Sequence record: MH494197.1
Origin: Escherichia phage CMSTMSU
Strand: one strand, 5' to 3'
DNA length: 64,000 bases
A program made the position numbers and the translations under genes. Below the pieces are notes generated by a model. The model was not told the origin of the DNA and did not search any database. It saw only the letters and a program-made list of their open reading frames with translations. Below, piece by piece: positions 2,326-51,741 of the stretch. How positions within the stretch are numbered: the first letter of the stretch is position 1; each line of letters opens with the position of its first letter.

Positions 2326-3812
2326 TGGCATATAGAATGTGGAAAAAGGTAGAACCAATGATTACAAGTTCATTGACTCTGCCATAGCAGAACAATACAA
2401 CATCGGTGGTGTTGACATGTGGCTTTATGCCTATGTCGGACCAAAACAAGTCGCTGATAACACTGATTTATCATATGGCGGTGATTATTATGGATCAGAT
2501 AGTACCGTTGTGTCAAGCATTGGTGATTTAATTTTGGTGACACTCCAAGTCGTAACTATAATCTCGAAGCTATCACCTTAAGTTGCGTCTACCAAGTCCA
2601 AGAAGCAACTCCTGACTTGAAAATCCCGATTGTTCTTCAACTTTAACACTATGGACATCACAATTCATTATAACACAATGATTCAGCGTTTGGGAAGAAA
2701 AATTATGCCGTGACGTAATCGAACTTCCTAACTTACGTGATTTTGATGTACTTGGTAAAGATTCTGGTTTAAACCGCTTCTATGTAGTACAAGATGGGTT
2801 TAGAACGTCAGAAGGTTACTCAGTTACATGGCAACATCACATTTACAAACTCCGTGTTAAACCTCTTACTGATTCACCAGAGTACTCTGACCTTCTAGGT
2901 AACAATAACTACCCTGATGACCCAGATGATCCAAACAACGGCAATGGTAATACTGATGATGGCTCTTCAGAGAACAGCAGCTATGGTAATGAAATGGATA
3001 TTATGAACCGTATCATTATGCAAGCTGATGATGAAGTACCATACATTCATTTTACTAACGAACACTTGTTCGATGACAGACCAGATACTGTTGATTTGTC
3101 TAAGTATATGCTAAATGGATACGAATTACCAGAGGAACCAGCAAATAAAATGTATTTCCTCAAGAAAACTTACCCAGTACTGAAAGAACTATCTAATGAT
3201 ACATGGATTTCTGTAGAAGTCAAGCGTGGAACAATCTTTCCTCGCAAACCGATGGATGGTGACTTCTTCTTTAAAGAAAACGAGGCTGATGTCACTGGCT
3301 TCTCATTGTATCAATACGATAAATCTGCCAAAAGTGGCTAAATTGTGATGTTGAGTATACTACAGAAAGCACACCACCACAAGGGGTTGATGATTTTTAT
3401 ATTGAATACAAAGAACCACACATTTATCAGTACTTAAATGGTAAATGGGGAGAACCAGAAGTAACTTACGTTAATGACCCATTCACTTCTAATAGTGTTT
3501 ATGGAAATATCGATTCACAACAAGATTATCGTCCTAAGATTCCTCCAGCACGAGGTACAGTTCCTGAAGGTAACATGTTCCCAAGTGATGCAGTTGATGG
3601 TGATTACTACTATCGTACCGATTATACACCAGTAACCCTATGGGAATACAGTGCGTCCAAGAATTCTTGGGTGATTTTCGATTACGGTGGTAGAAAACCG
3701 TGGAAGGTGCAGATCTTGCTCTAACAGAATTTGTTAATAGCCCGAACCGTGTGCCATTACATGATGCAGTTAAACCTAATACAGTGTATCGTATACATAA
3801 GGATTCAGAATG
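2326..3812 (+). CDS. hypothetical virion (baseplate/tail?) protein, about 495 aa, frame broken
   Basis: Same-strand ORF pieces (2339-2581, 2994-3341 and unlisted frames between) read as one protein with an Asp/Pro/Gly-rich linker; stop overlaps the next start as ATGA at 3810. Function not recognised. Confidence 0.4.
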
Positions 3813-12271: not shown

Positions 12272-15200
12272 ATGTACTCGATTAAAACAGATCTAGATAT
12301 AACTGGTGGTGCAACGGTTGGTAAAGATCTTCTTGTGAAAGGCGATGCAGTATTCAATAAAAATCTAACAGTTAATGGAACTGTAACTTTTGCTGACGCT
12401 GTATTCACTGCAATTGAAGCAGGAACTGTAGACATTTCATCTACACTAGATGTTGCTGGTAAAGCATCATTGAATGGTGGAATTGAAGTTCATGGTAATT
12501 CCGTAATTGGTAATTTGCCTGTTGGCTCTGATACTGCAACGATTAATTCTAATGCACAATTCCAAAGCCCAGTATCAATGGCAGGTAACCTAACACAAAC
12601 CGCTGGCACTGCTGTACTAAAAGATACCCAAGTGGCATCAATGGATGTTCTTGGAACTTCTTCATTTAAAGGTAATATTACTGCTGAAACTGGCACTACC
12701 GCAGCATTTGACAAAATAACTGCAACTGATGCAACATTCACAAACACTGCAACTACTGATATCACATCAACTGGAACTGCAAACTTTAAAGATGTGAATA
12801 TTTCCGGTACACTAGGTGGAACATTTAGTCTATCTGATGTTAATGCAACAACTCTAACTGTTTCTGGTTTAACCAGTCTACAAGGTGGTGTTACATTAGG
12901 TTCCAACATTACTGGTGTGAATAGTAGTGCAAACTTCCGTGATATTAAAATTGGTTCCAATGCTGCAAACACTAACTACCGTTTGAGCTTTAACTATTCT
13001 GCTCCAAGTCTTCGCCCAACTGTAATTCTACAGAACGAAATCCAATCAGAATTGATGTCTCCAGCTACCCTAAGTGTATTGAAAACTGCATCTTTTGGTG
13101 ATTCGTCATTATCCACTTTTGGTATTACTGGTAATGGTCTAAACAAACTAGATTACCTAACAGTATCTGGTAACTCTGTTCAAGATCCAGCAACTCCACT
13201 ATTACAAGTAACTTCAGGTAAAACTAAAGTTCATGATTTCGAAGTAACAGGAACTGCAACTATTCCTAACATTGAAAGTACTGGTACTGCTAATTTTAAT
13301 AACATCAACGTATCTGGTACACTCGGCGGTACTTTCAGTCTTGATGATATTGAAGCAAACACTCTAACTGTTTCTGGATTAACTAGCCTTGTTGGTGGTG
13401 TAACTTTAGGTGCTGATATTTCCGGTGCTAATAGTACTGCTAATTTTAAAGCAGTAAGTTTAGGACAAAACGCAGCCGATGCTAACGTTAAGTATGGTTT
13501 TGCTTATTCTGCCCGGTGCTCGTCCAACTGTAATTCTACAAAATGAAATTCAGTCTGAACTAGTATCTCCAGCAGTACTAAATGTACAAAAACTGCTACC
13601 TTTGGTGATGCATCTCTTGCAACCTATGGTATCACAGGTAACGGTCTAAACAAACTAGATTATCTATCTATTACTGGTAATGGTACACAAAGTCCAGCTA
13701 CCCCACAACTACAAGTAGCTGGTAAATCAGTACTAAATGATGTTGAATTCACTGGTACTGTAACTGGTCTAACTGTTGATGTGAGTGGACAAGATCTAAC
13801 TCCTAAATCAGTAGTTGCTGCTGAAGCAATCAAAGGTCAAACCCTTGAATCAGTTGGTCAAACCACCGTAGGAACTAACCTACAAGTTGGTGGAACTGCT
13901 AATGTTGTTGGTGCACTAACTGGTACTGCTGCTACCTTCACTGGTGATGTAAGTGCTGCTAAAGGTACTTTCAGTGGTGATGTTAGCGTTACTGGTCAAA
14001 CTGTAACTGTACGTGATTTAGTAGTAACTGGTACAACTACTGGTGTAACTGCCCAAGCTGATGTTGATGGTCTTGATATCGCCCCAAATAAAGTTGATGT
14101 TACAACAACACTATCTGTTGCTGGGGACACTACTTTAGCTGGCCTAACTGCTAGTTCAGTAACCAGTACTGGTGATGTTACTGGTGCGTCTGTATCTGGT
14201 AATACAGTAACTGCGGCTGGTGCACTATCTGGTGGTTCTCTTGCAGTAACTGGTGCTGGTTCTATGGCTTCACTAACTGTTCCAAGTATTACTGGTGACA
14301 CTACTTTTGCTAATAACGTAACTATTACTGGAACACTAACTCCGAGTAGTATAGATTTAAGCACTACTGATGTAAGTGCTGCTTCTTTAACAACTACTGG
14401 TAACGTAACTGTTGGTGGTTCTCTTGCAGTAACTGGTGCTATTGATTTGTCTGCTGCTGATGTAGTAACAAAATCAGTTAGTGCAACTAACCCAAGTACA
14501 TTTGGTGTAATTAATGCATCTTCTGTTGTCGCAACTGGTGACGTTTCAGGTGGCACTCTAACTACTACTGGTGCAGCGAAAGTAGGAACACTAACTAGTA
14601 CTGGTGTAGTATCTGGTTCGCGTTTGTCTTCTGGTACTGCAACAATCTCAACTTCTGTAACAGTTCCAACTTTACAAGCTGAAGCTGCTGGTGCTGGTAC
14701 ACTAAATCTAGCAAGTAATGTTGTCGCGGCAAAGATCTAACTGTCACTGGTGTATTCAAACCTGAAGGTGGTCTTGACCTAACAACTGTTGATATTACTG
14801 CAAACTCACTAACTACTACTGCTGATGTTAATGTTGGTGGAAACTTAGTAGTTGATGGTACTTTTGACCTAAGTGCTGCTGATGTGTCTGTGAAATCTCT
14901 TGCAAGTGCAGAGACAATTACAAGTGCTGGTGTTATTACCGTTACCGATTCAACCAATACTAGTTCGTTACCTAAAATTACTTCAACTGATGCAACACTC
15001 TTTACAGTAAATGCAGGTACTATTAATGCAACTGGCAACAGTGTACTACAAAGTGTATCAGCTACTCAAGTAACTGCAACTAGTGCTGAATTGACTGGTG
15101 TTGGTCTTGGTCTTCAAGTCGATAATGATGCAAACGTTGGTGGTGCATTATCTGTTGGTGGAATCGCAACTGTTGGTTCTTTAACAACAACTGCTGCTTC

Positions 15201-17201
15201 TCTTAATATTGCAAAAATACTGCAATCACTGGTGATTTAGCTGTATCTGGCACACTAACTGCTGGTTCAATCGACCTAAGCAATACTGATGTAACCGTTA
15301 AATCTCTTGATTCACTAGGTAACGCACACATTGCTGGTGACCTAACTGTAGATGGTGCATTCGACTTAAGTGCAACTAACCTTGTAGCTGCAAGTCTAGC
15401 AAGTACTGGTTCTACTACTGTTGGAACTGATCTAGTACTAACAACTGGTGTTGTGACTGGTAGCCCAGCTATCTCTGGTAATACAACAATCGGTGGAACT
15501 CTTGGTGTAACTGGTGCTGTTAACCTAACTGATATTGTTAATATCGGTAAGAAAGTAACAGTGAGTACTGGTGGTATTCAGGTAGTTGATGGTGGTATCA
15601 ATACTAACACAATTAACGTTTCTGGTGCTTCTACTCTAGCAGGAACTTCCATTACTGGAACTTTAGGTGTAACTGGTGCTTCTACTCTAGCAGGTGTATC
15701 TGCGACATCACTAACAGTTTCTGGTGACAGTACTGTTCAGAAACTAACTGTCCAAGGTGAATTGATCCCACAAGGTGGTCTTGACCTAAGCGGTGCAGAC
15801 ATTACTGCTAATAGTCTAACTACTGCAACAACTATCAATGCAACTGGCCTAAGTACTCTAAGTGGTGGTGTTAGTACTTCTACTGTGACTGCATCTGGTC
15901 TAGCAACTGTTGGAAGTTTAACTTCTACTGCAAACGCATCAGTTGGTGGCAATTTGGGTGTAACTGGAACTCTAGATGTTACTGGTGCTACTACTGTATC
16001 TTCACTAACAGCTACTGGTGCAGTGAAAACTGGCACAACCCTAACTGTTGGTACTCCAGTTGGTGAACAACCTGAAACTGTACAGATCATTCCAGATACT
16101 TATATTGCTGGTAAATTGCGTGTAATCGGCGGTATTAACGCTGAAATCGACGTAAGTGGTCAAACACTAGAACCATATGCAATTGAAGCTGCTGCAACAC
16201 TATCTGCTGTTGGTAACATTACTTCTGGTGCAACCATCGTTTCTAAAGCTGCAACAATTGGTGATGTTGGTTCACAAAACAACAACCTAACTGTTAATGG
16301 TAACGTAGTAACTAATGGTGACTTCACCGTTACTGGTGTACTAAATGCACAATTGAACCAAGCAGATTCCGATGTAGCTGTTAAATCTTTAACTGCAACT
16401 AATAACGTTGCGGCTGGTACTTCAATCACTGCTGGAACATCCATCACTGCATCAGGCTTACTAAAAGGTAATTCGTTAGAAGTCACCACTACTGGTTCAT
16501 TTGGTGGTGCAGTAACTATGTCAAGTGGTGCAAACATCACTGGTACTGTTGGTATCACTGCTGGTGACCTAACAGTAGGTGGTAATATCTCTGCAACTGG
16601 GACTGCTGGATTCGGTGCAACAACCGTTTCTACCATTACAACATCAGGTTTAGCTACACTTGCAAGTGCATCTGTAACTGGTGCTCTAACTGTAGGTGGT
16701 ACATTAACTGCAAATGGTAACACTGTGATTGGTGATGCTGCTGCTGATACTTTAACTGTAAATGCAACATCGACATTTAAAGAGAACGCAACATTTGATA
16801 AGAACCTAACAGTGACTGGTTCTATTAACACCACCACTGCAAACTTCACCACAAACAACATGGTAACTAAGAAATATTCTGTTATCCCTGCTAGTGTTAC
16901 TGCTTCTACTGCTGCTGTAGGTGGTACTTGGACACCAGATGGTACTACTAACGTATATCGCTTAACTCTTGACCAAAGTGTTACAATGGATTCCATCGCG
17001 GGTCTAATTGGTAGTGGTCAAGCATGTTCAGTGTATATCTATGTAACTCCATCTGTTGCTGATACTACTTTCACCTTCGGTGGTGCATACTCTGTAGTTT
17101 CTGGTACAGTAAGTGCTGTAGTTGGTCAAACAAGTATTATCCAAGTAATCTATGATGGTTTCAGTACTGTGTTTGATACCTTCGTTGCACAACGTGTATA
17201 A
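12272..17201 (+). CDS. giant tail fibre protein 1 (about 1640 aa; Thr/Gly/Ser/Val-rich repeats; several frameshifts)
   Basis: Same-strand ORFs 12272-13546, 13781-14740, 14884-15240, 15453-17201 with in-phase unlisted segments between; repeated LTVSG/VTGT motifs; C-terminal tip ...VYIYVTPSVADTTF...VIYDGFSTVFDTFVAQRV; RBS GGAGGGA. Confidence 0.7.
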
Positions 17202-17220
17202 CATTTTAAATTAATAATTA

Positions 17221-17250
17221 AAGCCAACTAAAATAGTTGGCTTTTTCTTT
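17221..17250 (+). terminator. intrinsic terminator
   Basis: AAGCCAACTaaaatAGTTGGCTTTTTCTTT. Confidence 0.55.
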
Positions 17251-17280
17251 GTATTAGATAATAGTGTTTTGTGAATTAAA

Positions 17281-17300
17281 CTAAATATAAGTATATTAAC
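17281..17300 (+). promoter_or_regulatory. late-promoter-like motif CTAAATATAAGTATATTAAC
   Basis: Matches 12206-12226. Confidence 0.4.
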
Positions 17301-17347
17301 AAAAGATGGGTTATGAATATATAGTTCATCGTTATAGGAGGGACTCT

Positions 17348-20300
17348 ATGTACTCGATTAAAACGGATCTTGATGTATCTGGTAATTCCACGGTAGGTAA
17401 GGATCTTTTGGTCAAAGGTAATGCAGTATTCAGTAATGACCTAACGGTTAATGGGGAAGTGTCTTTTGCTAACGCAGTATTCACTGCAATTACCGCTGGT
17501 TCTGTGAATGTCACAGGTGCATTGGATGTTGCTGGTAAGGCAACCTTATCCGGTGGTGCTGATGTTTCAGGTGCTGCGACATTTGCAGGAAACATTACTG
17601 CTGCTGACGGCACAACTGCAAAATTTGATAACTTAGAAGCTAATTCAGGATCATTTAATTCTGTTGAATCAACTGATATTACTTCAACTGGCACAGCAAC
17701 TTTTAAAGATGTAAACATTTCTGGTACACTTGGTGGTACTTTTAATCTTTCTGATATTAATGCTACAACACTTAATGTGTCTGGTGCTTCAGCACTAACT
17801 GGTTCAGTCACATTGGGTGCAAATATCACTGGTCTTGCAAGTACTGCAAACTTCCGTGATATTCGTATCGGGCCTAATGAAGAAGGTCAAGCATATAGAC
17901 TAAACTTTGGTTACACCGTTCGGACAACGACCAACCGTTCTTCTACAGAACGAAGTTCAATCCGAACTAATGTCTCCTGCTAAGTTGAATGTTCTACAAA
18001 CTGCAACATTTGGTGATTCTTCACTTTCAACTTACGGTATTACAGGTAATGGTTTAAACAAATTAGATTATGTAACTATTTCTGGTAACGCAATTCAATC
18101 ACCAACCACTCCTTTACTTGAAGTAACTAAAGGTAAAACTAAAGTTGTTGATTTAGAAGTGACTGGCGTAGCAACTATTCCTAATATCGAAAGTTCTGGT
18201 ACTGCAAACTTTAACAACATCAACGTATCTGGTACTATTGGTGGTAGTTTTGATTTAGATGATATCCAAGCAACAACATTATCAGTATCCGGTGCTTCAG
18301 CACTAACTGGTGCAGTTACATTGGGTGCAAACATCACTGGTCTAGCAAGTACTGCAACATTCAAAGCAATCAATTTGGGTCAAAATACCGCTGATGCTAA
18401 CGTTAAGCTAGGTTTTGCATATACTGCACCTAGTGCACGTCCAACAGTCTTGTTAGCAAACGAAGTTCAATCTGAACTAATGTCTCCTGCTAAGTTGAAC
18501 GTTCTACAAACTGCAACCTTCGGTTCTGCTGCACTATCTACCTATGGTATTACTGGTAATGGTCTAAACAAATTAGATTATCTAACAATTACTGGTAACG
18601 CAACACAAAACCCTGCTACTCCACAACTTCAAGTTGGTGGTAAAGCAATTCTTAATGATGTTGAATTTACAGGTACTGTAACTGGCCTAACTGTTGATGT
18701 GAGTGGACAAGATCTAACTCCTAAATCAGTAGTTGCTGCTGAAGCAATCAAAGGTCAAACTCTTGAATCAGTTGGTCAAACAACTGTAGGTTCATCTCTA
18801 CAAGTTGGTGGTACTGCAACTGTTACTGGTGCATTATCTGCTGCCGCTGGTACTTTCAGTGGTGATGTTAGTGGTTCTAAAGGTATCTTCAGTGATAGCG
18901 TATCCGGTACAAGTGCAACCTTTACTGGGGATGTTAGCGGTGATAACGCAACCTTTAGTGGCGATTTATCTGCTGTAGCTGGCACTTTCAGTGGTGATGT
19001 AACCGTAACTGGTCAAACAATCACTGTTAAAGACTTGGTAGTAACTGGAACTTCAACTGGTGTAACTGCAATCGCTGACGTTGACGGTCTTGATATTGCT
19101 CCAAACAAAGTTGATGTTACAACAACTCTATCTGTTGCTGGTGAATCAACTCTTGCTGGTGTTACAGCAACTTCAATCAATAGTACTGGTGCAATTGCAG
19201 GTACTGCAATTTCTGGCTCTACTATTACAGCAACTGGTGAAATTTCTGGTGCATCATCTGTAGTAACTGGTCTTTCTAAATCTGGTAGCGTTGAAACTGG
19301 TGCTCTAAAGGCATCTTCTGTTGAAACTGCAATCATTAGCAACACTGCTGGTGTGTCAATAACAAACAACACTTCAATTGCAGGTAATCTATCTGTAACT
19401 GGAACTGTTACCCCGTGCAATTGACCTAAGTACTACTGATATTGATGCTAAGTCTCTAACAACTACTGAAGGTGCTAACATTGGTGGTGACCTAGTTGTT
19501 GCAGGTACAGTTGATCTAAGTGCTGCTGACGTTGCTGTTAAATCTCTAACCAGTACTGGTGCAGTTATTAGTTCTGAAGGTACAGTAAGTAGTGTTCTAC
19601 CTAAACTTTCCAGTACTGAAGCTAATATTACCACAGTAACTGCAACCACTGCAAATGCTACCACACTAAATGTAACTGGTACATCAACTCTAGCTGGTGT
19701 TAACGCTTCTGGTGCTATTACTTCTGCAACTAACATTACCGCTACTGGTGTATTAAAGGTGCATCTGTTGAAACTGCGTCAATCAGCAATGCTGATGGTG
19801 TAGCAATTAACAATAACACTACAATCACTGGTAATTTGGACGTATCTGGGACATTGACCCGTGCAATTGACCTAAGTACTACTGATATTAGTTCTAAGTC
19901 TCTAACCACAACTGAAGGTGCTACAATTGGTGGCGATCTTGTGGTAGCAGGTACTGTTGATCTAAGTGCTGCTGATGTGTCGGTGAAATCTCTTGCAAGT
20001 GCAGAGACAATTACAAGTGCTGGTGTTATTACAGTTTCGGATACAGTGAATTCTAGCACTCTACCAAAACTAATTACTACTGATGCAACTATTGGTGCTG
20101 TCCATGCAGCTACTATTGAAACAACTGGTTCAAGTACACTAAAACAAGTATCTGCTACTGAAGTAACAGCTACAAGTATTGTACTAAATTCAGTTGGTGA
20201 AGGTTTACGTGTTGACAATAATGCAAACATTAATGGTATATTAAGTGTTAATAATATTACTTCTACCAATGATACTATTGCAATTGCGAAAAGTGCTGCT

Positions 20301-23050
20301 ATTACTGGTGATCTGACCGTATCTGGAACTGTTACCCCGGTGCAATTGACCTAAGTACTACCGATATTAGTTCTAAATCCTAAGTACTACTGAAGGTGCT
20401 ACAATTGGTGGTGACCTAGTTGTTAATGGTTCAATTGATTTAAGTTCTTCCAATGTTTCAGCAATTACCCTTGCTAGTTCTGGTAATACTACCGTTGGTG
20501 GTAACCTAGTACTAACAACTGGTGTTGTGACTGGCAGCCCATCTGTATCTGGTAACCTTTCAGTTGCAGGTACTGCGGCAGTAACTGGTGCAACTACCTA
20601 ACTGATATCGTAAATATCGGTAAGAAAGTAACTGTAAGCACTGGTGGTATTCAAGTAGTTGCAGGTGGTATTAATACCGACGCTATATTAGTATCCGGTG
20701 ATACAACTTTAAACAACACTACTGTAAACACTACCTTAAATGTAACTGGTCAAAGTACAGTTGCTGCACTAAGTGCTGCATCTTTGAATGTATCTGGTGA
20801 TAGTACTGTTCAAAACTAACAGTTGAAGGTGAATTGGTTCCACAAGGTGGTATCGACCTAACTGGTGCAGATATTTCTGCTAATAGTCTTGCAACTGCTT
20901 CAACAATCACTGCAACTGGACTAAGCACACTAAGTGGTGGTGTAAGTACTACTAATGTTACTGCATCTGGTACAGTGAATGCTGGTAGTTTGGATGTTAC
21001 TAACAACGCAACCGTTGGTGGTAATTTGGGTGTAACTGGTTCATTAACTTCTGGACCATTGAGTGTAACAGGCATTGCGAATATTACTGGTGTAACAACT
21101 GTTGGTTCATTGGTTTCCGGTGCTGTATCTGGTAGTACTGGTACATTTAGTTCAACATTAGGTGTAACTGGTGCAGCTACATTTGACAATGACGTAACTG
21201 TTGAAGGTGTATTCACCCCAGCAGGTGGTTTAGACCTAACAACTTCTGATATTACAGCTAAGAGTTTGTCAGTATCTGAAACTATTCACTCTGATGGTGC
21301 AGCTTCCTTTGGTGGTAACACAACAGTAGGTGGTACATTGGGTGTAACTGGTGCAGTAACTGCTCCATCGGCAACCCTAAGCGGTACTGGTACTGCACTA
21401 GCAGTAACTAATAATGCAACTATTGGTGGTACATTGGGTGTAACTGGTCAAGCAACACTTGGTTCTATAGTAACTTCTGGTGTATCTGCAACAAGTGGCT
21501 CTTTCAGTACTACTCTTGGCGTTACTGGTGCTGCGACATTTGGAAACGATGTAACTGTAGTTGGAACACTAACTCCGGTAGCTTAGATCTAACTGGTGCA
21601 GATATCTCTGCTAAAACACTAACTCTATCTGAAACATTAAATGCGACAGGTAATACTACCCTTGGTGGAACATTAGGTGTAACTGGTTTAGCAACAATTG
21701 GTGGAACACTAACGTCTGGTGCAGTAACTGCTCCATCTGCAACCTTGAATGGTTCAGGAACTGGTCTAGCAGTAACTAACAACGCAACCGTTGGTGGTAC
21801 ATTAGGTGTAGTTGGTCAAACAACACTAGGTTCTGTTAAAACTGGTGCAACTCTAACAGTTGGTACACCATTAGGTGAGCAGCCTGAAACTGTACAGATT
21901 ATGCCAGACACTTATATTGCTGGTAAACTACGTGTTGAGGGTGGTATTAACGCAGATATCGATGTTGGTGGACAAACACTAGAACCGTTTGCAGTAATAG
22001 CATCTGATTCTTTATCTTCTGCTGGTAATATTACTGCTGGTGCGGCAATTATTTCAAGTTCTGCAACAATTGGTGAAGTCGGTTCACAAAACAACAACCT
22101 AATCGTTAATGGTAACGTTGTAAACAACGGTAACTTCACTGTTACTGGTGTACTAAATGCACAATTGAACCAAGCAGATTCCGATGTAGCTGTTAAGTCT
22201 TTGACTGCAACTAACAACGTAGCTGCTGGAACCACATTAAGTGCAGGTACTGCAATTACTGCTGGTACTTCCATCACTGCAACTGGATTACTTAAAGGTA
22301 ATACTTTATTACTACTACTGGTTCATTTGGTGGTGCAGTAACTATGTCAAGTGGTGCAAACATCACTGGTACAGTGGGTATTACTGCTGGTAACCTAACA
22401 GTGGGTGGTGATATCTCTGCAACTGGCACTGCTGGATTCGGTGCAACAACCGTTTCTACAATTACAACATCAGGTTTGGCTACACTTGCAAGTACATCCG
22501 TTACTGGTAACGCAACAGTAGGTGGAACACTAGCAGTAACAGGAGCACTAACTGCGAATGGTAACGTAACATTAGGTGACGCAGCGGCTGACGTTCTAAC
22601 CGTTAATGCAACTTCATCATTTAAAGAAAATGCTGTGTTTGATAAGGCAGTAACAGTAACTGGTGAACTAACCACTACTAATGCTAACTTAACTACTACA
22701 ACAGTAACTACCAAAAGTATGATGTAATCCCAACTCAAGTTACATCATCAGTAATTGCTCCAACCGGAACATGGACTCCAGATGGTACAAGTAACGTGTA
22801 CTTCATCACTCTAGACCAAGATACCACGTTGGCTCCAATTACTGGCCTAATTGGTGGCGGTAAAGCTGCATCAGTATACATCTATGTTAAACAAGATACA
22901 ACTGGTAACAGAAACTTTACAACTGATGGTACTTATGCTGTTGTTGATGGTGAACTAAACAAAACTGCTGGTAGCGTGACCATTTACCAAGTAATTTATG
23001 ATGGTGTAAGTCCAGTTACTGATTTGTTCATTGCACAACGTACTGCTTAA
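17348..23050 (+). CDS. giant tail fibre protein 2 (paralog of fibre 1; about 1900 aa; several frameshifts)
   Basis: N-terminus MYSIKTDLDVSGNSTVGKDLLVKG matches fibre 1 MYSIKTDLDITGGATVGKDLLVKG; long near-identical nucleotide blocks shared with fibre 1; divergent but homologous C-terminal tip ending VIYDGVSPVTDLFIAQRTA. Confidence 0.7.
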
Positions 23051-44601: not shown

Positions 44602-44770
44602 GGTGCTAATAGTTATTTGGAATTATACAAGCAATACAAGTATACCATAGGAGCAAAATGTTCGGTATCAACTAAGTATATTAACTGGGTGTCATATATA
44701 CCGTACAAATCTCGAAATTTATCTCTGTACAGCAACAATGACTTATTGTTGTGTGGGTCAACCCAGTACT

Positions 44771-45199
44771 TTAAGTCATTGTAGTGCAACGTGTTATTAC
44801 GGTAACCTGATAATATTTGTTTTTAGCCAACTTTTTACAATTACTTAGTAAATGCATGATGGCATCAGCGGTAAATGGTCCCAGTACTAAAACTTCTTCT
44901 CCATTACCGAAGATACTCAATGGTACAGATTGTTGTCCTGCTAGATATTCGATTTGTTCTAATTCGAAAATGTCATCAGCAGCATAAACAACCTGTTCCA
45001 TTTCATTATCTTTAATCCATGACTGCCAATGTTCTTTAAACTGCTTCGCTTCGTATTCCAGTACATAGTTAGGTGATTCTGGATTGTACTGATGTAGCAT
45101 TGTCATACCAGCCATAACCAGTTCTTTTGGTGATGGAGTAGAATCTTTCAGTACTACGATAGCTTGGATAGTTTTAACTTTAACGTTTTGAGCAGCCAT
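44771..45199 (-). CDS. hypothetical protein, 142 aa
   Basis: ORF only. Confidence 0.35.
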   Translation of the reverse strand: MAAQNVKVKTIQAIVVLKDSTPSPKELVMAGMTMLHQYNPESPNYVLEYEAKQFKEHWQSWIKDNEMEQVVYAADDIFELEQIEYLAGQQSVPLSIFGNGEEVLVLGPFTADAIMHLLSNCKKLAKNKYYQVTVITRCTTMT

Positions 45200-45535
45200 T
45201 AGATACCTCTATTATAGAATGATTTTGTTATCAGGAACAATCAGTGCTGGTTTTTCTTCGATAGCCTTGATTGCTTCAACATAAGCTTCAACTAGTGCAG
45301 GGTTTGCATCGCTGATGCTAATGATGTTGGATTTATAAAAATAACGCCTTTTTCAGAACTAATGAATTCTAGGTAATCACGTAGAATGATTTCACCTTGT
45401 TCGTCAGTACCTAGCTGTGCTGGGTAGTTAACTACTACTGCTTCTGGTGCATCATTTTGTAGAATTGCTAGTACTGCCAACGCTGTTGATGTTTAGTAGT
45501 TTAACGGTCATAGTCATTTTGTCAAGTCCTTTTGT

Positions 45536-46012
45536 TTATTTTAGAAAGTATAAGTGTTTTTCTGCATTAACCAGTCTGTGGTCAATGATTTCTTTGATAA
45601 CGTTCCAGTTACCACCGCCTAAATCGGCTCCAATTTTCGGGAAGTGTACATGAACAGTGCGTTCAACGTTACATAAGTAATTGAGTTGTTTGAAAACATC
45701 ATCGATTGCATCATAACTCACATACTTAGAACCGTCATTACCATAGTACTTTTGGGTAATGCAGTTTGCGATAAGCAAATCATCACTTATAGAAGAATAT
45801 GAAATTTGTCCTGTTCTTAGAAATCCCATTTCCTTTTCATATGCTTTATAATCATCATATGCCATCGGATAACGATTTCTTAGTTCTTTTGCAAAACCCG
45901 AACCCATCTTACCCTGTGCATTACAACCATGAGCGATTATATGCAACGCGGTTTGATCATCAGTAACAGTGTTGAACAATTCAAACAAATTACCTAGGTG
46001 TTCATGTATCAT
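45536..46012 (-). CDS. macro domain protein, TARG1/OARD1-like
   Basis: IIAHGCNAQGKMGSGFAKEL and HFPKIGADLGGGNWNVIKEII match the two conserved segments of TARG1-type macro domains as I recall them. Confidence 0.6.
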   Translation of the reverse strand: MIHEHLGNLFELFNTVTDDQTALHIIAHGCNAQGKMGSGFAKELRNRYPMAYDDYKAYEKEMGFLRTGQISYSSISDDLLIANCITQKYYGNDGSKYVSYDAIDDVFKQLNYLCNVERTVHVHFPKIGADLGGGNWNVIKEIIDHRLVNAEKHLYFLK

Positions 46013-46055
46013 TATATTCTCCGAAAGAAAGGACTCTGTAATCAGAGTCCTTAAT

Positions 46056-46319
46056 TTATATTTTATTCTTCTTCACCGAATCGAATTTTTTCAATTCTTT
46101 TCGTTGTTTGCGAGCAATGGTACTTTTGTGAAGTCTATTACCACGTTTTGTGTCTTTCGTAATGTACCATGAATCTTCTGGTGCATCATAATCACAATAA
46201 CCATCTTCTGTAATCGTCCCTAAGAAAGCAGACTTTTTAGGAATGGATGTTTGAGCTTTAGCAGCGAATTGGCCTTTTGCTAATTGTTCACGAAAACTGA
46301 GCATAATAGTATCTCCCAA
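46056..46319 (-). CDS. hypothetical basic protein, 87 aa
   Basis: ORF only; Lys/Arg-rich C-terminus. Confidence 0.3.
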   Translation of the reverse strand: MGDTIMLSFREQLAKGQFAAKAQTSIPKKSAFLGTITEDGYCDYDAPEDSWYITKDTKRGNRLHKSTIARKQRKELKKFDSVKKNKI

Positions 46320-46349
46320 ATTGTTACGAAGAACTTGTGTTCTTCATTA

Positions 46350-46592
46350 TTATTTAGGGTTGCTCGAAACCTCTACTGAAGCGATGAATGCCAAAATATC
46401 ATCTTTACTGAAAGCTTCAATAATATAAGCAACCGCTTTATCGTACTGTTCTTTCTTAGTAGTGTATTCTTTCATTTTGTGAATTTTACGTTGTGCTTTA
46501 ACTTTTGCAGCTTCCATATCAGGCATTTTAAATTCAACACCCAATGTGTCAGCTAAATGTTTTGCACGAGATGATACTTTATCAATATTCAT
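46350..46592 (-). CDS. hypothetical protein, 80 aa
   Basis: ORF only. Confidence 0.3.
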   Translation of the reverse strand: MNIDKVSSRAKHLADTLGVEFKMPDMEAAKVKAQRKIHKMKEYTTKKEQYDKAVAYIIEAFSKDDILAFIASVEVSSNPK

Positions 46593-46609
46593 TAATTCCA
46601 GCGACCTTC

Positions 46610-46849
46610 TTTAAGACCTTCAACGAAACCAGTACAGCCACGGAACGTAAACATCGTTTACGAAAATTTGTGGAACCTGTCGTACTGGCTCACCACATAG
46701 TTCAGATAGTTTAGCACCATCAATACCAGCGGTAACATATCGATAAACTCCATATCAAATTTGTTATTTTCACATACTGCTTTAGCAGTGTCGCAGAATT
46801 TACAACCAGTAGTGCGACCATAAATTTTAACTTTCATTTCTTTTCCTTT
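46610..46849 (-). CDS. glutaredoxin/NrdH-like redoxin (frame-broken)
   Basis: MKVKIYGRTTGCKFCDTAKAV with C-x-x-C; C-terminal part in a shifted frame. Confidence 0.5.
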
Positions 46850-47046
46850 ATTTCGTTGAAACATCGTAACAGCCTTTATTATACTGTTACACATTCGTTC
46901 AGTCAAATACTTTTGACAATCTAGTACATCAATGTACATGAACTTATCCAATTCTGGGTGACTTCTACCATATCTGTTTGTGTAAGTACTTTTACACTCC
47001 AACTCTTCTGGTATAGGCTTATCTTTGGCTGTATAGAAAAATAAAA

Positions 47047-47288
47047 CTAAACGTTTCCCTTTCTATACGATACATCACCAAGAAACAGAAGATCATCTTC
47101 ATCGATTTCATATCCTGTCTCTTCGTAGCATTCACGTACAGCAGCCTCTTTAAATGTTTCTGTACCTTCAGTTTTACCTTTAGGTAAGTCCCAGTGATTC
47201 TGTCCGTGTTGTATGCCCGATAAGTATCTGACCATCACGATAAAATATTATACCACAGCTATAACGCATAATCTTATCTCTTTATCAT
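47047..47288 (-). CDS. NUDIX hydrolase (second copy; frameshift near N-terminus)
   Basis: Nudix box GKTEGTETFKEAAVRECYEETGYEI. Confidence 0.6.
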
Positions 47289-47344
47289 CAAGTGATGTTC
47301 AGATACTAGTAATTATATCAGAAGATGTTAACTTGTCCCAGCTT

Positions 47345-48578
47345 TTAGAACATTTGCTTGATTGCTTCAATACGCAATTCAGCAACAAAATCACGAATCT
47401 CCGATGTTTGGAGTTCACCATCTTTCACTAACTGCTGAATATCAGGTAATTCAACATCAGTATAACGATCATAAACTTTAATAATCAAATCTTCAAGTTC
47501 AGAATCAATTTCTTTGTTCAAAATGAAGTTTTCCAGTACTTTGTAAAGGAAATCTTCACCACCATTGTTTTTGATATTCATATCCAGTAAGATTTGTCCC
47601 ATTTCAACTGGGGTCTTCTTACGGAAGGTTTTAATATCTTCACGGAAACGCTTGATGTAATTATAAACTTCACGTACTTAACTGGAACCTTAATGGAACC
47701 GTTAAGTACTGAATCATTATTTACTTCTTCATTTTCAAGAAGTACTGTCCATAAGAAATATGGTTTATATTCTTCTGTACAATTTACAGAGATAGAATCA
47801 ATTAATTCCAGACGTTTCTTGGTAACTGGAACTGTAGTAAATGCCTTTTCGTAATAACCAAATTGTACCAGAGTTTTGATAAACTTGGAAGGGTTTTCTT
47901 CAGAAAGTGCTTTTCGAATTCAACAAAACACGATCTGGAACTAGATGGTCTAGTTCACCAGTACTAACCATATCTTTACACATTGTCATAGTATCATCAT
48001 GGATTGTAAAGTCGGAGTAACGCGTAGCGAAACGGGCCAAACGTAGAACACGCAATGGATCTTCTTTAAAGTGTTCTGATACATGACGAAGTACTTTGTT
48101 CTTGATATCAGCTTTCCCGCCATAAGGGTCGATGTGAATCTGGAGTACTGGATCATATGCAATACTATTGATTGTGAGATCACGACGATATAGATCTTGT
48201 TCTAGTGTCACACCTTTGTATTCACTTCGAAACCACCATATCCAGTACCAGTTTTACGCTCAGTACGGGCTAATGCGTGTTCATTACCTTCTGGACTTAG
48301 ATATACAGGAAATCCTTACCTACTTGCTTGTATCCAATACTTTGCAAGTATTTAATATCGGATTCGGTAGCACCGACAATAACATAATCTTTGTCTTTTG
48401 CACGGATGCCCATTAAACGGTCACGAACGTAGCCACCAACCAAATACTTTTTCATATCATTCCCCATCAACCAATCACGTAGACGTTCCCAGAAGCCTTT
48501 TGGCTGATATTCTGGATATTCATATTCATCTGTTCCTTGCTCGGAAACACCCCAATCTTCTTCTAATACTGTAATCAC
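47345..48578 (-). CDS. CCA-adding tRNA nucleotidyltransferase family enzyme (frame-broken)
   Basis: [49 protein letters not shown]; preceded in frame by a 40-codon segment that is duplicated at 49587-49706. Confidence 0.7.
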
Positions 48579-48636
48579 AATGCCTCCAATTAAATTAATC
48601 TATCACGTAGACGGTCGTAATATTTTGCATGTATAT

Positions 48637-49011
48637 CTAGTATACACTGAAATGACGGATAGTCAATACTAAATGTATCATCAATGAACATGTACTGATC
48701 AAGTGTTTCAGGACCATTATCATAAACTGGCAATGAACCTTCTTTTTTAACAGTGTGTTCCACATCAAATCACATGTAGTATCGAAAATTGCGTATGCTA
48801 ATTCTATCTTACTTTTTCTAAGTGTAATTAATAATTCATCATTCTCTACTAACGCGTTTCGTATTTTTACACGTACTGTACCCTGAAATTTATTAGTGGT
48901 TAGTACTCTATATTGATTATACGAAATCATGCCTCGTATTTCAGTACTGATTTCTTGTTCAGAAAAGTACCTTAATGTACTGTGGAAATTTGGTATTTTA
49001 CGAATGTCCAT
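48637..49011 (-). CDS. hypothetical protein, member of a tandem paralog set
   Basis: C-terminal frame DQYMFIDDTFSIDYPSF parallels YLQYQFIDDTFGFDFELYN of the 48998-49408 ORF. Confidence 0.35.
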   Translation of the reverse strand: MDIRKIPNFHSTLRYFSEQEISTEIRGMISYNQYRVLTTNKFQGTVRVKIRNALVENDELLITLRKSKIELAYAIFDTTCDLMWNTLLKKKVHCQFMIMVLKHLISTCSLMIHLVLTIRHFSVY

Positions 49012-49408
49012 TCAAATTCCTTTCGTATATATGGTATACGTTCATTATACTATTATATAGTTCAAAGTCAAATCCAAATGTGTCATCAATGAACTGATAT
49101 TGTAGATACTCTTCATATGAAGCATCAATTGGTAATGAGCCAGAACGAATATCATCTGATTTAAAATCGTCAATATATCTTAATGTTATTTCTTCATCAA
49201 CAGTGATATCTATCATCAACGTATCGTCACTGTACCAAAGGTTATGTATACGGATGTAAAGTTTCTTAGCACGATTAAAACTAGATACATTGGTATTGCG
49301 ATGGAGTTTATCTAAGTTGAAGTAAAACCGGCTCGTTTTACTTATGTTTTTCATATGTTCTGCAATCGAATCAATTATATAATCAATGTTGAATGTTCTC
49401 ATAAACAA
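48998..49408 (-). CDS. hypothetical protein, tandem paralog
   Basis: See 48637-49011. Confidence 0.35.
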   Translation of the reverse strand: MFMRTFNIDYIIDSIAEHMKNISKTSRFYFNLDKLHRNTNVSSFNRAKKLYIRIHNLWYSDDTLMIDITVDEEITLRYIDDFKSDDIRSGSLPIDASYEEYLQYQFIDDTFGFDFELYNSIMNVYHIYERNLNGHS

Positions 49409-49508
49409 ATCTCATAGCGGTTTGTGTTTGGATTGTAGCAATAGGTATCATTAATTTTAACACGGTTTAAGTGTTATTGTTGTTCCTACTTCAGTACTGG
49501 GTTCTGCA

Positions 49509-49706
49509 TCACAATAAATCATCACACCAACGCCACAGATTAAAGCTAAGATACAAATAATAGCACATATTATATATTCCATCACTCCCCATCAGCCAAT
49601 CAAAGAGACGTTCCAAGAAGCCATTAGGCTTGTATTCTGGTTCTTTGTTCACGTCGGTTTCTTGTTCATAAACACCCAAATCTTCTTCAAGTATAATTGT
49701 ATTCAT
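49509..49706 (-). CDS. small acidic protein sharing its 40-aa N-terminus with the ORF upstream of the CCA gene
   Basis: MNTIILEEDLGVYEQETDVNKEPEYKPNGFLERLFDWLMG vs [39 protein letters not shown]. Confidence 0.35.
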   Translation of the reverse strand: MNTIILEEDLGVYEQETDVNKEPEYKPNGFLERLFDWLMGSDGIYNMCYYLYLSFNLWRWCDDLL

Positions 49707-50089
49707 TATATATTATACTCTATTATACCATCATCACTTTCACCAGACAACCACTTAATGTAATTTACTTTGTAGAAATTAATCAATGCATAAGTGCTGT
49801 ACTCAATCAACAAGTGATCTCTCAAGAATTCGTCTTGAGCATATCCATCTTCATCCAAATCTGTTGGAATATCAGTTTCTTTGTCTTGAATGTGTAAAGT
49901 TATTGTGTCTTTTGTTATACAAATTTTTATATGATTACAAATAGTAATGATGATTATGCTATATGTTCTATTGAAATATATTGTGAAATCTTCATTAATA
50001 TTATATCTTCGACTTTCTTCATATTTCTGATATGGGTCGAAATGTGATAAATTAACTTTAATTAATGTATTTCTCAACTTACACCTCAA
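49706..50089 (-). CDS. hypothetical protein, 127 aa
   Basis: ORF only; possibly related to the 48637-49408 paralogs. Confidence 0.3.
   Translation of the reverse strand: MRCKLRNTLIKVNLSHFDPYQKYEESRRYNINEDFTIYFNRTYSIIIITICNHIKICITKDTITLHIQDKETDIPTDLDEDGYAQDEFLRDHLLIEYSTYALINFYKVNYIKWLSGESDDGIIEYNI
49722..49755 (-). promoter_or_regulatory. sigma70-like promoter TTGTCT-N17-TGGTATAAT
   Basis: Extended -10 TGGTATAAT on the minus strand immediately upstream of ATG 49706. Confidence 0.35.
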
Positions 50090-50602
50090 TCATATAAAGT
50101 AATTATACATTTTATTGTACAATATAAAAGGTCTTTCACATTATCATAAGTAATATCAGATATATCATGAATTAATGATAACTGAAAAATGAAGCTTCGT
50201 CTATCTCTACTGGGATTATAACATCATAGTCTTCGTCAATTTTATGGGTGTAGTATTTTATGTGATCAGCATTCAACACAAGGTTGTATTTTGTATCATC
50301 TTCAATTAATCCGACAAATTGAGATTTTTGATTAATAAAAATCCAATCCCAACACAACGGTTATCTGGATATGGATAGTACCATCTATTAATAACTAGGT
50401 GTTCAGGTAAGTCCATATCATGTGTTGATATTAAAGATTTTACAATTCCCATCCGGAATAATTCATAATTAAAACTCCATAAGAAAAGGGACAGAATAAT
50501 CTCTGTCCCTTTATTATATCTTACTCTTCGTCTTCAGTCAAGTCTTCTTGAACTGGATGTTCGGGTGGTTACGGCGATGCAATTTGATGCTTTTGTCTTT
50601 AC

Positions 50603-50851
50603 CTAAGACAGTTTCCATTTTTCAAATGAATCACCAATTGCTTTGTATAAATCTGCATCATCGGCGGTGACAATCTTACCACCTGATGTTAAAGTTACGG
50701 AATATTGATTCTTATGCTCTTTCTTCACATGAACACCGATATAAAGTACTGAAGAATCACTAAATTTCGTTAGTACATTTGCTTCTGCATGAATCGCGTC
50801 ATTGATTGCTGGAGTAATATCAACATTACCTTGGATAACTAAATCTAGCAT
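50603..50851 (-). CDS. hypothetical protein, 82 aa
   Basis: ORF only. Confidence 0.3.
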   Translation of the reverse strand: MLDLVIQGNVDITPAINDAIHAEANVLTKFSDSSVLYIGVHVKKEHKNQYSVTLTSGGKIVTADDADLYKAIGDSFEKWKLS

Positions 50852-50865
50852 AATTTACCTACCTT

Positions 50866-51741
50866 TTAGAGTGAGCTTAACAGCAAATCCGCTCTGTTTG
50901 TAACTTGGCGATACCACAAGGAATTCATGATTTCTTTCTTGAACTTCTTAGGGTTATCCATTTTAACACTTTTCCAAAGTTTGTCAAATGTTGCCAACTT
51001 ATCAACGCCCATTGTGTATGACATTTCAAACAGGATACGCTGCTGTTCTTTTGTCAGATTAACTGCATCTTTCTTCTGCATCAATAGTGTAAAGTCCTCG
51101 TAAGTCCTTTTCATATCTTGCATTAAAAGTTTGTTGGCCTGTGCTTTGGTAATCCCGTTTCTGTACTTCATTGCATCAGAATCTTTCTTACCCAAATAAT
51201 GCCCATAACCAATTGTATAATTACCTTTCATGTCCTTATAGGGATGAAATTTAGAATTGTGGAAAGGAACTCCAACTTTCCCACCAAGTAATTTACGTTT
51301 GTTCTTGGACTGAAATTCAATAGAACCTTCAGCTTCTTTGATGTGATCGACAATTTCTGGATCTTTATAATCAAACAGTACAGTCACATCTGGTAACAAT
51401 ACGTTCTTCAAATCCTCTTTGTTGGGATAAAGATACCTGAGAAGTATGAAGAGTTGCATTTAAGTTGATATTCTTCAACAAAATGACATAATCTTCAATC
51501 TGTACATTTTAGGTTTAAATTTCTGTGCAATAGAATAATAACTATCTCCGGTTGAACCGTATAATGTTTCTCGCTGCTTGGAACTGCCTTTGGTACTGAT
51601 ACCTTTAGTAGTTCCTGCTTTTGAATTTACAACTTGTGGTTTTAAATTATGCACCTGACTTTCGTCTAATGATGATGCACGATCACTTTGAGAAAAACCA
51701 TAAAATCCAATCGCAGCGAATAGGGCTGATGAAACTAACAC
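50866..51741 (-). CDS. GH24 (T4-lysozyme-like) muramidase with LysM-like motif and N-terminal hydrophobic segment (one frameshift)
   Basis: GNYTIGYGH and SLWYRQVTNRADLL match T4 lysozyme motifs; LysM-like YGSTGDSYYSIAQKF; N-terminal Gly/Ala-rich LVSSALFAAIGFYGF. Confidence 0.7.

Follow-up and report, generated by a model that had tools for sequence, protein, structure and literature searches.

Two short, related open reading frames (ORFs) lie on the minus strand of a 64,000-nucleotide stretch of Escherichia phage CMSTMSU (record MH494197.1; this whole stretch is called the window), and one of them reads without interruption into the gene for CCA tRNA nucleotidyltransferase (the CCA gene). An earlier note on this DNA had described them as an acidic N-terminal module duplicated in front of the CCA enzyme and a small ORF. 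Our analysis makes it very probable that the two ORFs are free-standing paralogous genes and that the apparent module of the CCA enzyme came about through homopolymer under-calling in a nanopore assembly that had not been polished. The repeat itself is genuine and amounts to an ordinary small-gene duplication. Neither gene is new, as both are annotated in close relatives and catalogued as a PHROG family (PHROG 34272).

Two copies of a small gene

The two ORFs, of 40 and 41 codons, are referred to here as copy 1 and copy 2 (Table 1). That they are duplicates of one another, as had been proposed, is borne out: their corrected products are 67.6% identical over 37 residues (BLASTP, E=2e-16), and their coding DNA is approximately 80% identical throughout, beginning at the start codon, with the likeness breaking off at the stop. 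tblastn with four family members, together with scans for two nucleotide motifs, gave a copy number of exactly two and no third copy in the 64-kb window. The corrected product of copy 2 is MNTIILEEDLGVYEQETDVNKEPEYKPNGFLERLFDWLMGE.

As the window is written, each copy lacks one G and neither has an in-frame stop. Copy 1 is in frame with the CCA start and lies within a 93-amino-acid (aa) ORF at 48297-48578, while copy 2 and a 25-residue tail make up a 65-aa ORF at 49509-49706. A 42-aa hydrophobic ORF is found in a different frame near copy 2.

The fused appearance arises because a run of five G residues shortly ahead of the stop codon has lost one of them. With five G residues at this position both ORFs end in DWLMGE followed by TGA. 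The jumbo E. coli phage fEgEco12 is 99.4% identical to CMSTMSU over the 2.5-kb region concerned, and PBECO4, 121Q and further Asteriusvirus-like jumbo phages are 80-97% identical. In fEgEco12, copy 1 ends GAT TGG TTG ATG GGG GAA TGA, followed by a single T and then by ATG AAA AAG, the start of the CCA gene, and copy 2 ends ATG GGG GAG TGA, in which the A of the stop is shared with the ATG of the next gene (TGATG). Base-by-base reading revealed GGGGG and the stop at the end of copy 1 in fEgEco12, Turkey3, Ecwhy_1, WPEC5, PBECO4, 121Q and ph0011, and at the end of copy 2 in fEgEco12, Turkey3, Ecwhy_1 and WPEC5, and likewise in the single copy of JNE01. The change of GGGGG to GGGG at the two sites is by itself enough to yield both 'fusions'. 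In the case of copy 1 the stop is out of frame, and the ORF reads into the CCA gene, because the base-caller shortened the run.

Relatives of CMSTMSU also give no indication that the CCA enzyme has an extended N-terminus. The two copies are annotated as separate coding sequences of 40 and 41 codons in the relatives' records, and in every relative examined the small gene stands by itself, an ORF of about 38-50 codons that has a start and a stop of its own. Annotated CCA orthologues that we read begin MKK... after a stop, and the PolyA_pol head domain starts at residue 4 of the MKKY... protein. The note had offered two alternatives, a shared leader peptide or a small duplicated gene joined to the CCA gene by an indel. 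The second is correct in its outline, the indel being a sequencing error and not a mutation. The idea of a shared leader or N-terminal module is not supported. The note had itself named a restored stop and an independent ribosome-binding site of the CCA gene as what would speak against it, and accurate sequence supplies both, in the form of the stop in every related genome examined and the Shine-Dalgarno-like GGGGG that precedes the CCA ATG. The position of the head domain points the same way, as does an exhaustive profile search of 1.84 billion representative proteins in which no family member was fused to, or embedded in, a larger protein.

Base-calling errors in the CMSTMSU record

The G-run indels belong to a window-wide pattern that is typical of nanopore base-calling errors. 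According to its announcement, the CMSTMSU genome (MH494197; 386.4 kb) was sequenced on a MinION FLO-MIN106 flow cell, base-called with Albacore 2.1.3 and assembled with Canu, with no polishing mentioned (PMC6256653). Errors at Dcm motifs and in homopolymer length were the dominant consensus errors of the Oxford Nanopore Technologies base-callers of that period (Wick et al. 2019, PMC6591954).

Relative to fEgEco12, the 2.5-kb region shows 13 deleted bases and 3 substitutions, and the whole window 278 deletion events and 1 insertion, the latter count being taken from the main alignment to fEgEco12 only, with the paralogous tail-fibre alignments left out. Runs of at least four bases account for 170 of the 278 deletion events and CCWGG (Dcm) sites for 45. 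All 45 of the CCWGG sites in the fEgEco12 reference are corrupted, so that there is none in the window. The fraction of runs that are miscalled rises with the length of the run in the reference, from 2% for three bases through 7% (four), 45% (five), 93% (six) and 95% (seven) to 100% (eight). Each of the four G/C runs of at least five bases is shortened, and two of these are the module ends. The window thus resembles the errors described for R9.4/Albacore data (Wick et al. 2019, PMC6591954) in that they are overwhelmingly deletions and fall at CCAGG/CCTGG and in homopolymers, and we found nothing in the window that differs from that description.

It is, of course, conceivable that the fusion is genuine in this isolate, such that a real one-base deletion lengthens the CCA enzyme at its N-terminus by an acidic stretch of 42 residues; the window as written is in frame from 48578 through the CCA ATG. 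We regard this as highly improbable. Five further single-base deletions (47664, 47911, 47925, 48215 and 48308) shift the frame within the same 1.1-kb CCA gene and break it into several ORFs, and taken as real they would in any case leave no functional enzyme. Deletion events number 278 against a single insertion and follow the length of runs and the Dcm sites, copy 2 has undergone the identical change from GGGGG to GGGG with only a nonsense tail to show for it, and a fused homologue was not encountered among the 1.84 billion representatives. In-frame continuity, real enough in the deposited letters, is accordingly not upheld as biology by the 99.4%-identical fEgEco12 or the other relatives that were read letter by letter at these sites, all of which have GGGGG.

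The 42-aa membrane peptide of the earlier note has a similar explanation. A hydrophobic ORF does exist there in another frame, but its length is wrong: it is a 61-aa gene (g280 of fEgEco12) that is cut short in the window where CCAGG is written CGG at 49464.

With about one indel per 230 bases in the window and in the public CMSTMSU record, ORF lengths, fusions, frameshifts and 'pseudogenes' in this genome are untrustworthy without comparison to a polished relative. Names in the records also call for some care. The 65-aa frameshift ORF was deposited as 'UNVERIFIED_ORG: tRNA nucleotidyltransferase [Escherichia phage CMSTMSU]' and the WPEC5 record calls the 40-aa small gene 'nudix hydrolase'; both names were seemingly borrowed from a neighbouring gene.

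The G run as a putative ribosome-binding site

A run of five G residues is able to base-pair with the anti-Shine-Dalgarno sequence if one G·U pair is allowed. The spacing between the run and the next ATG is 6 nt for the CCA gene and 4 nt for g280, and we propose that the run pairs in this way to serve as the ribosome-binding site of the next gene, which would be the CCA gene in the case of copy 1 and the 61-aa gene in the case of copy 2. Two observations in relatives fit such a role. In A4, where another gene is found downstream at another distance, the G run is broken synonymously (ATG GGA GAA TAA). In ph0011, GGGGGAGTGATG and g280 are intact even though copy 2 is interrupted by two in-frame stops.

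Translational coupling between the small gene and the gene that follows it is probable, because the stop of the one abuts or overlaps the start of the other. In copy 1 the stop lies one base before the CCA ATG (TGA-T-ATG), and in copy 2 the stop overlaps the ATG of the 61-aa gene (TGATG). T4-like and other large phages commonly have coupled genes packed in this manner, with TGATG or a stop, one nucleotide and ATG at the junction and with the Shine-Dalgarno sequence located within the first of the two ORFs. The window copies share both the packing and the GGGGG at 4-6 nt from the next ATG with these coupled genes; what differs is that for the window copies coupling is deduced from the sequence.

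The G run could in principle be a programmed +1 frameshift site. In this scenario the tRNA-Gly would slip from GGG to the overlapping GGG, a fraction of ribosomes would make a small protein-CCA fusion, and the nanopore deletion would mimic the product. In Asteriusvirus the stop of the small ORF, a single base and ATG follow one another, which invariably places the CCA start in the +1 frame, and the sequence shows that after a slip on G-GGG-G re-pairing would be perfect and the product would be ...MGN(D/N)MKKY. We nevertheless give this scenario very little credence. The slip codon is followed by GAA and not by a stop or a rare codon, and the hungry A-site that acts as the stimulator in prfB-type frameshifting is therefore absent. 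Furthermore, the gene downstream of copy 2 is not in the +1 frame, the run is broken synonymously in A4, and XaC1, Munch and metagenomic relatives have no G run, their CCA gene being in another frame or behind intervening stops. What the site has in common with prfB is a Shine-Dalgarno-like sequence and a run that would allow the P-site tRNA to pair again in the +1 frame, whereas it differs in what follows the slip codon and in a frame relation that is kept neither between the copies nor across the family. We therefore rejected assignment of the G run to the prfB type (GAA precedes the stop, and frame and run are not conserved outside Asteriusvirus).

A conserved small acidic protein

The 40-position profile phrog_34272 matches copy 1 over positions 1-40 (E=3.2e-31), copy 2, likewise over the full profile (E=3.5e-16), and the homologue in Munch (E=1.9e-5). 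Named members of the PHROG are 121Q gp538 (YP_009102125), PBECO4 gp034 (YP_009150348), fEgEco12 g283 and g279, XaC1_258 and CPT_Munch_219; those of 121Q and PBECO4, together with fEgEco12 g283, are the orthologues of copy 1. A word-indexed search of 5.8 billion proteins returned 26 clusters with members of 38-49 aa, the CMSTMSU artefact excepted, and the exhaustive profile search of 1.84 billion representatives returned 16 matches of 38-76 aa. Neither copy has a Pfam match.

Members of the family have a near-invariant N-terminus (MIxxLEEDWGV), an acidic linker of widely differing length and a C-terminal, Trp-containing amphipathic segment. Both window copies agree with the other members in size, in motifs and in place, between an array of approximately 130-aa paralogs and the CCA gene. 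Copy 1 has the full N-terminal motif and no biological difference from the family. Copy 2 has a partial motif (EEDLGV) and differs from the family in having Leu in place of a Trp that is invariant in the 24-cluster family alignment. What we are left with is a very small acidic protein whose N-terminus is strikingly invariant and to which no function is assigned; its gene is kept in the vicinity of the CCA gene throughout the Rak2/Asteriusvirus-like jumbo phages.

One possibility is that the small ORF is a cis-acting leader, that is, an upstream ORF that delivers ribosomes to the gene downstream and whose peptide has no function. The abutting or overlapping stop and the Shine-Dalgarno-like run inside the ORF would suit such a role, as would the fact that the ORF immediately precedes the CCA gene in most cases, namely in Asteriusvirus, in XaC1, in Munch and on two distant metagenomic contigs. 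Proximity to the CCA gene is not strict, there being three intervening genes in Hallingskeid and one in a metagenomic phage, and in JNE01 g280 comes between the small gene and the CCA gene. The N-terminal motif is invariant in front of these other genes as well, including an array gene (in Hallingskeid and on the P0008 contig), a 355-aa zinc-finger gene (A4) and the membrane peptide gene (JNE01). That the peptide is conserved whatever gene follows argues against a purely cis-acting leader. In addition, the amino acids are conserved while the codons change: invariant Leu residues are encoded by TTA, CTT, CTC and CTA, Ser by both TCN and AGY codons, and Gly and Val codons vary at the third position. 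The ratio of nonsynonymous to synonymous differences (pN/pS) among orthologues of the small gene is 0.13-0.23, over 41 codons with few substitutions, and the protein is under purifying selection. There was no Rfam match on 47000-50500 at E<=1, and a terminator scan gave a single terminator-like site, far from both copies. We consider the leader scenario unlikely. An attenuation-type regulatory leader was rejected on the same Rfam and terminator results together with the purifying selection on the peptide. Promoter-like sites numbered 26, compared to 24.1 +/- 4.7 expected, and are therefore uninformative.

The product of the small gene might be a small and for the most part disordered peptide that acts in trans by binding a partner, which is perhaps to be found within the tRNA/translation block in which the gene resides (HPF, CCA, Nudix, glutaredoxin). 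We put this forward only tentatively. AlphaFold2, run on a 24-sequence alignment, predicted a helix at residues 29-38 as the sole structural element, with low confidence (a predicted local distance difference test score, pLDDT, of 62.6). A more specific proposal, in which the protein is a dedicated partner or regulator in trans of the CCA enzyme or of the neighboring tRNA/translation block and its gene is retained beside the CCA gene and coupled to it for the sake of a fixed ratio, seems unlikely to us; in its extreme version there would be a low-level +1 frameshift fusion. We also looked at a link to lambda CIII and did not retain it, as the C-terminus of the Munch homologue matched phrog_550 at a non-significant E=0.073.

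The five G residues at both sites in CMSTMSU itself are deduced from the relatives and the error signature.

Duplication history and the state of copy 2

Only six records have two copies of the small gene: fEgEco12, EC.P1, Turkey3, Ecwhy_1, WPEC5 and ph0011. Three gene orders can be distinguished. PBECO4 and 121Q have g277, g280, g281, g282, the small gene and the CCA gene (layout A); JNE01 has g277, g278, the small gene, g280 and the CCA gene (layout B); and fEgEco12 and the window have g277, g278, copy 2, g280, g281, g282, copy 1 and the CCA gene (layout C). Layout C is the union of layouts A and B. It could have arisen by recombination between A-type and B-type genomes at the g280 that they have in common, or layouts A and B could have arisen by reciprocal losses from a two-copy ancestor of type C; the two scenarios explain the layouts equally. 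We also considered a segmental duplication in which g282 with copy 1 gave rise to g278 with copy 2. This was rejected, as g278 and g282 gave no BLASTP alignment and g278 compared to the array profile by hhalign reached only 21%.

Copy 2 is probably a redundant, decaying paralog that is under relaxed constraint in two-copy genomes, as judged from the Leu at the invariant Trp position, from a pN/pS of 0.44 (on small counts) relative to the JNE01 counterpart, and from ph0011, in which copy 2 (L017 ~3095-3226, minus strand) is a pseudogene, MNTIMLEED*GVY*QE..., that is unannotated in the record.

Neighboring genes

Coordinates of the two copies, their G runs and the adjacent genes are collected in Table 1.

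Table 1. Features of the window around the two copies of the small gene (positions in the 64,000-nucleotide window)
Feature	Position	Strand	Remarks
CCA tRNA nucleotidyltransferase gene	47345..48455	-	own ATG at 48455-48453 (MKKYLVGG...); PolyA_pol head domain from residue 4
Small acidic protein gene, copy 1	48457..48578	-	GTG start after GGAGG; corrected stop TGA at 48459-48457; phrog_34272
G run at end of copy 1	48462..48465	-	GGGG in window, GGGGG in relatives examined; encodes part of Met-Gly-Glu
g282 homologue, 140 aa	48590..49011	-	phrog_20693; paralog of g281 (E=9e-9); frameshifted at 48743
g281 homologue, 135 aa	48998..49402	-	phrog_20693; tandem paralog array; three single-base deletions at 49324-49336
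61-aa Cys-rich gene, hydrophobic N-terminus	49399..49582	-	fEgEco12 g280; phrog_4189
Small acidic protein gene, copy 2	49582..49706	-	orthologue of fEgEco12 g279; phrog_34272; stop TGA at 49584-49582
G run at end of copy 2	49587..49590	-	GGGG in window, GGGGG in relatives; part of Shine-Dalgarno-like GGGGGAG
g278 homologue, 123 aa	49706..50077	-	TTG start; with copy 2 forms a ~500-bp cassette absent from PBECO4 and 121Q

The order of genes in this block is lysozyme, HPF, an array of approximately 120-160-aa genes to which no function is assigned, the small gene, CCA, Nudix and glutaredoxin. Taken more widely (window ~44700-51500, minus strand), the block contains lysozyme/LysM, HPF/RaiA, the CCA enzyme, Nudix, glutaredoxin and a macro domain and is translation- and tRNA-related in character. 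It is kept across Asteriusvirus, XaC1, Munch, Hallingskeid and metagenomic relatives, and in fEgEco12 a peptidyl-tRNA hydrolase gene (g291) is found slightly beyond it.

The tandem array (window 48590-50467, minus strand; also L007 1299-3835 and L008 1689-2499) consists of fast-diverging paralogs of approximately 120-150 aa that have a C-terminal EEEFFQxSxLxD motif (phrog_20693, phrog_36582). Its copy number varies, with g277, g281 and g282 in the window, two members in Munch and about six in Hallingskeid. By hhalign, g277 joins the array (87%) and g278 does so weakly (probability 21%). The g280 peptide (MEYTICAIICILALICGVGVMIYC..., phrog_4189) is conserved across Asteriusvirus.

The 355-aa gene of A4 (L018 2733-3800) encodes a treble-clef zinc-finger domain (DUF4379) and A4 is the sole phage in which it separates the small gene from the CCA gene. 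Such a location and so patchy an occurrence suggest a mobile, possibly endonuclease-like gene.

At some distance from this block, at approximately 12755-22532 of the window, alignment to the reference revealed internal paralogous segments of 0.7-1.2 kb with 73-84% identity. These are located inside the pair of very large genes annotated as 'long tail fiber proximal subunit' (g316 and g317 of fEgEco12), which indicates that the tail-fibre genes contain repeated modules.

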